Part shown: positions 35,574-36,189 of the stretch, piece after piece
Numbering within the stretch: position 1 is the stretch's first letter
Layout of the letters: each line of letters begins with the position of its first letter
DNA from: Escherichia phage KM01
Sequence record: PV018827
Length of the DNA stretch: 64,000 nucleotides
Direction: 5' to 3' (one strand)
The notes under the pieces: model-generated
The model's database searches: none
Seen by the model: only the letters and a program-made list of their open reading frames with translations
What the model was told of the DNA's origin: nothing
Translations under genes and position numbers: made by a program

Positions 35574-35783
35574 TCAGTAGTAAATTACTTTAGACATAAA
35601 AGAACCAGTGTTAGGGTCTTCATACCAGCGATGTATGTCAGCGCTTTTTACTATTGTGCCCAGAGTCTTCAACTGTTTCTTAGCAATACGAGCCTCTTTG
35701 CGAGTGTCAAACAATTTGATGCTATCTTTTCTCATGTGTTGCTCAAGATCCCAAACAACATGAATAGCCCACATCTTTTTCAT
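35574..35783 (-). CDS. small protein, member 3 of a tandem triplet ending in ...YY
   Basis: 69 aa; shares W-x-V/I, TR-x-x-AR and C-terminal KVxYY with neighbours. Confidence 0.4.
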   Translation of the reverse strand: MKKMWAIHVVWDLEQHMRKDSIKLFDTRKEARIAKKQLKTLGTIVKSADIHRWYEDPNTGSFMSKVIYY

Positions 35784-35992
35784 TAGTAATGCACCTTTCC
35801 ACTGATATAAATACGACCAGAAGAATACTCCTTGGCCTTATGGATACTGATACTATTGACCACGTCACCAGTAAGCATAGTCTTTTTAAAATCTCGAGCT
35901 TGTTGGCGAGTGGGTAGTGCAGTCATAGTCATGCCACCTGATGCCCACTTAATCTTTGCTAACCAAAATTGTCTCATAGTGATCGGTCTCAT
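35783..35992 (-). CDS. small protein, member 2 of tandem triplet
   Basis: 69 aa; ends GKVHY; ATGA-type overlap with neighbours. Confidence 0.4.
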   Translation of the reverse strand: MRPITMRQFWLAKIKWASGGMTMTALPTRQQARDFKKTMLTGDVVNSISIHKAKEYSSGRIYISGKVHY

Positions 35993-36189
35993 TAATAATA
36001 AACCTTACTGTTGGCAATAAAAGCACCTTCGCTATTCACAATAGCTCTTCCTAATGTAACCTTGTTAAGTCTAAAAGTAGACTTGTATTGATTTTTGACT
36101 CTACGTGCGTGCTCTCGAGTCTTAACAAAATCTACAGCTACTAACTCTCCAGTCGTGTTATCATGTACACGAACAATCCACTTTTTCAT
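35992..36189 (-). CDS. small protein, member 1 of tandem triplet
   Basis: 65 aa; ends SKVYY. Confidence 0.4.
   Translation of the reverse strand: MKKWIVRVHDNTTGELVAVDFVKTREHARRVKNQYKSTFRLNKVTLGRAIVNSEGAFIANSKVYY

Follow-up and report, generated by a model that had tools for sequence, protein, structure and literature searches.

The window, a 64-kb stretch of the genome of Escherichia phage KM01 (PV018827), carries on its minus strand three small genes, here called copies A, B and C, which are arranged head-to-tail and span positions 35574-36189 in the ORF listing (Table 1). The 4.2 kb around the array is 95-99% identical to many phiEco32-group Escherichia and Shigella podophages (98.8% to ev_rybdy3, 98.2% to SkaterBoy_Bas90 and FS2B, 98% to LorandFenyves (Bas91), 94.9% to phiEco32), and by this nucleotide identity the window is placed in the genus Kuravirus of the subfamily Gordonclarkvirinae.

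The genes are not new objects: they have been annotated since the phiEco32 genome, where phi32_71, phi32_70 and phi32_69 stand as hypothetical proteins, and their family is catalogued as PHROG 4939, which covers gp69-71 of phiEco32 and extends over Kuravirus, Nieuwekanaalvirus and Suseptimavirus. The gene order in phiEco32 is dCTP deaminase (phi32_72), phi32_71-69, the conserved hypothetical phi32_68 and then a Dps-like DNA-binding protein. The window proteins are members of this PHROG in the same gene order and have 86-100% identity to the named orthologues; no difference was found at the level of the family. Small, tandemly duplicated, lineage-restricted phage genes are a familiar and ordinary kind of feature. 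In the literature search no paper was found that mentions gp69, gp70, gp71, phrog_4939 or their internal paralogy.

Table 1. Positions of the array genes, their neighbours and related sites in the window and in the relatives
Feature	Position	Strand	Size or sequence	Remarks
Nucleotidyltransferase gene	36733-38103	minus	456 aa	phrog_12715
dCTP deaminase gene (dcd)	36190..36723	minus		Pfam DCD E 3.7e-34; 5' neighbour of the array
dcd/copy A junction	36189/36190			no insert in the window
Copy A	36189-35992	minus	65 aa; MKKWIVRVHDNTTGELVAVDFVKTREHARRVKNQYKSTFRLNKVTLGRAIVNSEGAFIANSKVYY	phiEco32 gp71 orthologue; pI 10.3, net charge +8
Copy B	35992-35783	minus	69 aa from ATG 35992	phiEco32 gp70 orthologue; pI 10.35, net charge +8
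Copy B, alternative form	ATG 35977	minus	64 aa, MRQFWLAK...GKVHY	
Copy C	35783-35574	minus	69 aa; MKKMWAIHVVWDLEQHMRKDSIKLFDTRKEARIAKKQLKTLGTIVKSADIHRWYEDPNTGSFMSKVIYY	phiEco32 gp69 orthologue; pI 9.8, net charge +6
Gap between copy C and gp68-like gene	35502-35573		72 nt	
Motif AATGTATA, fuller AAATGTATATAG	35541..35548	minus		within the 72-nt gap
Further AATGTATA sites	13559, 24280, 24353, 31004, 57891, 63505			
gp68-like gene	35172-35501	minus	109 aa	phrog_10984
Dps/ferritin-like ORF	34616-35227	minus	203 aa	TTG start
Site of the 58- and 61-aa ORFs of relatives	34366-34375			both ORFs absent from the window
Thioredoxin gene	34091-34366			
Gap between thyX and thioredoxin gene	34076-34090		15 nt	D copy absent
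thyX	33419-34075			
Junction insert in SU10	2686-2892 of L003		68-aa ORF	
Junction insert in KBNP1711	2083-2274 of L005		63-aa hydrophobic ORF	
Junction insert in a metagenomic relative	2367-2876 of L010		HNH endonuclease	
Two extra ORFs in ev_rybdy3	869-1243 of L002		58 and 61 aa	

Gene starts and transcriptional setting of the array

Both junctions within the array read TAATG, the stop and the start codon overlapping by one base, and the stop of dCTP deaminase abuts the ATG of copy A (TAAATG). Copies A and C both have the Shine-Dalgarno sequence AAAGGTG, 5 nt ahead of the ATG in A and 8 nt ahead in C. The start of copy B is less clear. ATG 35992 is preceded by TAAGGT at 9-10 nt and ATG 35977 by GAG only, thus the strength of the Shine-Dalgarno sequence speaks for the former. 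The family alignment speaks for the latter: ATG 35977 lines up with the start of every paralogue, the PHROG match of copy B begins at residue 6 and leaves its first five codons (MRPIT) outside the alignment, many orthologues are 64 aa long and begin with MKKFW or MRQFW without the MRPIT extension, and the ev_rybdy3 annotation gives the 64-aa form. Copy B therefore probably starts at 35977, in which case A and B would not overlap. The sequence-only reading had described three consecutive ORFs of 65-69 aa with overlapping start and stop codons, and these were recovered at the same span with TAATG at the junctions; the overlap itself holds for B/C and is lost for A/B if copy B begins at 35977.

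The array forms the 3' end of an operon which also contains the genes of a primase/helicase, a polymerase exonuclease subunit, the nucleotidyltransferase and dCTP deaminase. In the gap behind copy C, directly upstream of the gp68-like gene, the sequence AAATGTATATAG fits the consensus tAATGTAtA of the promoters served by the phiEco32 gp36 sigma factor, and a gp36-dependent promoter was mapped experimentally before gene 68 of phiEco32 (PMC8948821); by homology we infer that the promoter at this site is active in the window phage as well. With a gp36-type promoter before gene 68, copies A, B and C would be the last genes of the transcription unit in front of it. No terminator was predicted before gene 68 or between one copy and the next. 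The shorter motif AATGTATA occurs 7 times in the window against 2.65 expected, and 7 occurrences were reached in 4 of 100 shuffles. The literature is in conflict on the temporal class of these genes: CDS 69-125 of SU10 were placed in the early class by homology (PMC4281155), while the paper on phage 7-11 describes the cluster of polymerase and nucleotide-metabolism genes as middle. A paper on the svsR sRNA of Kuraviruses was also considered and proved irrelevant to the array locus.

Several observations concern the neighbouring genes. The nucleotidyltransferase has a weak match to the PolyA_pol head domain, and its homologues on two metagenomic contigs (L010 and L011) gave weak or faint Pfam hits to Gad2, an anti-Gabija family. 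The gp68-like protein, which is 100% identical across many Kuraviruses, is far more widely conserved than the array and usually adjoins the Dps-like gene; relatives with 31-37% identity are found in C3-type podophages of Aeromonas, Proteus, Salmonella and Cronobacter. The Dps/ferritin-like ORF overlaps the gp68-like gene by 56 nt in the window, and in related records the form is 187 aa long with an 8-nt overlap, so that by comparison its true start is probably the downstream ATG.

Paralogy, family motif and predicted fold

The sequence-only reading had taken the three genes for a tandem triplication and had named shuffled-sequence controls as the comparison that could refute their similarity. 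Smith-Waterman scores of the pairs were set against 2000 shuffles: no shuffle reached the score of A-B (z=7.5) or of B-C (z=8.4), whereas 61 of the 2000 reached that of A-C (z=2.4), a pair which is marginal taken alone and did not stand in this control as the other two did. Since A-B and B-C both beat all shuffles, A and C are linked through B. The matches to PHROG 4939 are of full length (A, E 7.8e-27, residues 1-65; B, E 9.2e-28, residues 6-69; C, E 1.7e-28, residues 1-69) and cover positions 1-67 or 2-67 of the 67 positions of the profile. Since this PHROG probably includes orthologues of A, B and C, an independent HMM was built from 14 distant relatives with 23-35% identity, all orthologues of the three copies being excluded. 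Against the 656 six-frame ORFs of the window it recovered A, B and C with E values of 8e-17, 6e-15 and 4e-13, and the next best ORF had an E value of 0.84.

The protein identity between the copies is 23-28% and no DNA-level repeat was found between them, so that the triplication is ancient; across Gordonclarkvirinae each copy is represented by a separate group of orthologues. These comparisons support that A, B and C are true paralogues derived from tandem duplication, thus the proposed triplication was upheld both by PHROG 4939 and by the independent profile, with the addition that the duplication is old. Searching the whole window with the family profile revealed no members beyond A, B and C, including the 51.6-57.7 kb region, in agreement with the earlier view that the family is distinct from the paralogs located there.

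The marginal score of A-C alone could be cited for the view that these are chance ORFs or a non-coding region with merely compositional similarity. The probability of this explanation is practically negligible: A-B and B-C outscore every one of the 2000 shuffles, the E values of the independent profile are 1e-13 to 1e-17, purifying selection acts in frame, the AlphaFold2 folds are confident, good Shine-Dalgarno sites precede A and C, and Rfam gave no match on either strand of 33-39 kb. Judged from their sequences, A, B and C are expressed-type coding genes of one family.

The family is restricted in its distribution. When a three-sequence profile was searched through a word index against 5.8 billion proteins, 83 clusters were returned, all of them A-like, B-like or C-like, and the longer contigs among these matches are about 77 kb in length. 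Only 25 hits came from 1.84 billion cluster representatives that were searched exhaustively by HMMER, and they are 65-79 aa long apart from one marginal repetitive protein, and searching IMG/VR with single distant proteins gave no matches. The members are single-domain, lineage-specific proteins of 64-75 aa, and all 47 aligned relatives match PHROG 4939. Nothing significant was found for A, B and C in Pfam, NCBIfam and PADLOC, and the PDB sequence profile search gave no match. Pfam scanning of the 47 relatives produced only scattered hits to DUF5893, DUF7204 and the RNase H1 N-terminal domain, each in 1-3 members with E 0.007 or worse.

In the family alignments the Trp near the N-terminus and two Arg residues are invariant. 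Nearly invariant are also the T, A and K within T-R-x-x-A-R-x-x-K, the MKK close to the initiator and the Tyr at the end of the protein. Besides the Trp, the conserved residues are R, R and K at positions i, i+4 and i+7 of a single helix. Both the Trp-containing N-terminus and the basic TR-x-x-AR helix noticed in the sequence-only reading are therefore genuine family features, the predicted helix beginning at TR. The uniform C-terminal KV-x-YY that it ascribed to all three products could not be confirmed: the actual ends are SKVYY (A), GKVHY (B) and KVIYY (C), with V-x-Y-COOH as the general pattern, and among 29 non-redundant relatives the only general features are the terminal Tyr (26 of 29) and, at position -3, a hydrophobic residue. 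Furthermore, every one of the 47 aligned members is basic, with pI 9.7-11.1 and net charge +6 to +12.

AlphaFold2 was run with the family alignment for copies A and C, and structure prediction, which had been suggested as a check, gave two confident models of common beta-beta-alpha-beta-beta topology. In the model of copy A (pLDDT 92.9) strands are predicted at residues 2-9 and 16-22, a helix at 25-38 and further strands at 43-51 and 57-59; in that of copy C (pLDDT 88.6) the strands are at 2-11 and 20-25, the helix at 28-40 and the remaining strands at 45-56 and 60-63. Both would thus have two beta-hairpins, with a helix of 13-14 residues between them which starts from the TR motif, and would end in a short C-terminal tail. 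The same order of hairpin, helix and hairpin (DSSP) is known from beta-grasp or protein-G-B1-like domains. An RRM-like or ferredoxin-like plait was rejected, since that fold needs the order beta-alpha-beta-beta-alpha-beta with two helices, which the models do not have.

When the model of copy C was compared with all PDB chains by Foldseek, nothing was found below E 0.3. The BFVD search returned members from the Kuravirus group together with uncharacterised proteins of Salmonella phage SE131, Aeromonas phage LAh_8 and Cronobacter phage vB_CsaP_009. Among these the LAh_8 protein LAh8_115 is a true family member (E 1e-8). The candidate gp092 of SE131 (73 aa) was dismissed as a member, being acidic and unrelated in sequence, with a resemblance only at the level of the fold.

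It is conceivable that the proteins are uracil-DNA-glycosylase inhibitors of the p56/Ugi type, which would offset the dUTP raised by dCTP deaminase. The adjacency to dcd is in line with this, as is a weak Foldseek match to the p56-Ung complex of phage VMY22 (8ail; E 0.75-0.84, TM 0.41-0.50); phi29-type p56 and PBS2 Ugi are likewise small (50-85 aa), combine a beta-sheet with a helix and have the same conceptual link to dUTP. However, the 8ail match is not significant and has no PDB sequence hit beside it. The known inhibitors p56, Ugi and SAUGI mimic DNA with an acidic surface, which the strongly basic window proteins (pI 9.8-10.4) do not have. Moreover, the phage encodes ThyX, so that dcd fits an ordinary dTTP synthesis. 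We consider this function very improbable.

Copy number, exchange and selection among relatives

The distribution of the copies was determined by tblastn over 50,697 phage records, in which all matches belonged to Escherichia or Shigella Gordonclarkvirinae. The B type was present in all 98 matching records, the C type in 93, the A type in 64, and a fourth, D type, located between thioredoxin and thyX, in 22. The order A-B-C is found in phiEco32, SU10 and ev_rybdy3; Paul and KBNP1711 have A-B-C and D, and SU7 has B-C only. Among the metagenomic relatives at least 4 tandem copies are present in L007, three in L008 and L009 and two in L017 and L018; L010 has two tandem copies after an HNH insertion, a weak extra match (E 0.0012) and D, while L011 retains a single array copy (B) and D. 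The copy content is thus 2 to 4 or more and not the same even in close relatives. The number of copies in related phages had also been suggested as a check, and it turned out to be variable and not fixed at three, the tandem copies numbering two, three or at least four.

The position of the genes is far more constant than their number. Wherever its flanks are present on the contig, the array has dCTP deaminase on one side and the gp68-like/Dps pair on the other, and the additional copy lies beside thyX, with thioredoxin on its other side. These positions hold in all relatives examined, including LAh_8 and the metagenomic ones at 25-30% identity, and no family members were found in the variable early region of these relatives. 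The D-type protein has 67 aa, as in Paul gp066 and KBNP1711 gp064.

Other small ORFs come and go in the same part of the genome. The point where dcd meets copy A is a hot spot of insertion among relatives, with inserts in SU10 and Paul, in KBNP1711 and in the metagenomic L010 (Table 1). Two of these were examined as possible family members and rejected, SU10_072 (in SU10 and Paul) as unrelated and KBNP1711 gp074 as unrelated and membrane-protein-like. In ev_rybdy3, SU7 and KBNP1711 two extra ORFs of 58 and 61 aa, which do not belong to the family, sit between thioredoxin and a 59-aa hydrophobic ORF; phiEco32, like the window, is without them.

Selection was estimated by pairwise Nei-Gojobori dN/dS in the minus-strand frames. 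The ratio was 0.12-0.35 for copy A, 0.03-0.13 for copy B, about 0.23 for copy C where divergence allows its estimation, and 0.014-0.038 for dCTP deaminase. The array genes are under purifying selection, which is roughly tenfold weaker than that on dcd. The divergence is discordant along the array. Compared with the window, KBNP1711, a phage of another genus, has a nearly identical copy C (dS 0.03) and a copy A with dS of about 2, and in SU10 copy C is identical while copy A has a dS of 0.6. This discordance along A and C indicates recombination breakpoints within or beside the array, and a recent horizontal exchange of part of it.

Possible functions of the paralogues

We tentatively regard A, B and C as putative accessory nucleic-acid-binding factors which act through their basic helix. 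In this model the family would serve as accessory binders of the replication and nucleotide-metabolism module. The basic stripe T-R-x-x-A-R-x-x-K-K on the single helix would touch the phosphate backbone of DNA or RNA, each paralogue would owe its own preference to the variable loops (beta1-beta2, helix-beta3 and beta3-beta4), and the C-terminal V-x-Y might fold back on the sheet as a structural cap. The paralogues would work independently and not as an obligate complex, and each of them would be individually dispensable, since the relatives keep different subsets of the copies. An obligate A/B/C heterotrimer was rejected, as SU7 is without A and the array of L011 consists of B only. Nucleic-acid binding is favoured by the universal basic character of the family, by the arrangement of all its invariant polar residues in an R/R/K stripe with the periodicity of a helix, by the retention of this stripe surface in paralogues with about 25% identity, which suggests a common type of ligand, and by a place in the replication and nucleotide-metabolism module that is kept over deep divergence.

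There are also points against this reading. The invariant Arg residues might have a structural role, such as a salt bridge to the conserved C-terminal carboxylate, and the basic surface could equally bind an acidic protein. The conserved position may merely reflect the synteny of the whole group, and the variation of copy number, the mosaicism of the alleles and the roughly tenfold higher dN/dS fit host-interaction genes at least as well.

The inhibition of host proteins is, in our judgement, nearly as likely as the binding of nucleic acids. According to this possible explanation the genes would encode inhibitors for host takeover or counter-defence, each paralogue blocking a different host protein or variants of one; the basic helix would dock on an acidic surface and the array would diversify through an arms race. 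A copy content that varies from 2 to 4 or more between close relatives, the mosaic allele exchange seen with KBNP1711 and SU10, a dN/dS roughly tenfold above that of dcd and the use of the dcd/array junction as a hot spot for the insertion of HNH or unrelated ORFs all speak for this explanation. The assignment of CDS 69-125 of SU10 to the early class (PMC4281155) points in the same direction, together with the resistance of Gordonclarkvirinae to restriction-modification, for which no inhibitor is known (PMC11990801). On the other hand, the proteins match no PADLOC-related or other known inhibitor family, every member is basic, unlike the acidic DNA mimics which inhibit restriction or Ung, and the most conserved surface is common to all paralogues, which would be unexpected if their targets were different. 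In addition, the genes are situated in a conserved nucleotide-metabolism module and not in the variable early region.

Tandem arrays of small accessory genes are well known in lytic phages, such as the anti-CRISPR and other anti-defence clusters, the internal-protein genes of T4 and the 'hypervariable' ORF clusters of T-even phages. The window array resembles the anti-defence and T-even arrays in its short products, tandem duplication, gain and loss of copies, mosaic alleles and a constraint weaker than that on the neighbouring enzymes; variable presence and copy number among close relatives, as known from Acr-like arrays, was found here too. It differs from them in its location within a conserved nucleotide-metabolism module and in the single invariant basic motif present in all paralogues, and no associated HTH (Aca-like) regulator was seen, unlike in arrays of the Acr type.

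The constancy of the neighbours raises a further explanation, which we hold to be unlikely: the small proteins could be adaptors or regulators of dCTP deaminase, the nucleotidyltransferase, ThyX and thioredoxin, which would, for example, assemble a complex for dNTP supply or DNA modification with a stoichiometry set by translational coupling. The members occur only beside dcd or thyX/thioredoxin, even at about 25% identity, and the stops and starts are tightly packed or overlapping, both with dcd and between the copies. These observations are set against a number of small proteins which varies between 2 and 4 or more, the enzymes being single-copy throughout, and against the HNH or unrelated ORFs which can separate dcd from the array. 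Furthermore, dcd, ThyX and thioredoxin are well conserved and work alone in other organisms. The authors of the BASEL study described the locus of dcd and the nucleotidyltransferase as a possible DNA-modification pathway that may underlie restriction resistance (PMC11990801), and their pointing to this locus counts in favour of adaptors.

The same proposal can be joined to nucleic-acid binding, although in this specific form the reading is quite improbable: gp69-71 would be a hitherto unrecognised class of small, basic DNA binders which acts with dCTP deaminase and the nucleotidyltransferase, coats or marks the replicating phage DNA and aids the broad resistance to restriction-modification that was reported for the BASEL isolates of Gordonclarkvirinae (PMC11990801). 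The paralogues would then cover different sequence contexts or different host nucleases.

This work adds the demonstration that gp69, gp70 and gp71 are paralogues, a confident predicted fold, a defining motif and the basic character of the whole family, together with a fourth type of paralogue located elsewhere in the genome, the range of copy numbers and the evidence of mosaic exchange. In about 100 genomes of the Kuravirus group, many of them from phages proposed for therapy, three or four 'hypothetical proteins' can be relabelled as one family, which would bring with it a defined fold, motif and start codon. If the proteins are only accessory binders of nucleic acids or host factors, this is one more lineage-specific family and the value lies mainly in the annotation. 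If they are tied to the dCTP deaminase/nucleotidyltransferase locus, the finding would matter more as a possible explanation of restriction resistance, and it would be directly testable in the K-12-infecting isolates Bas86-93.
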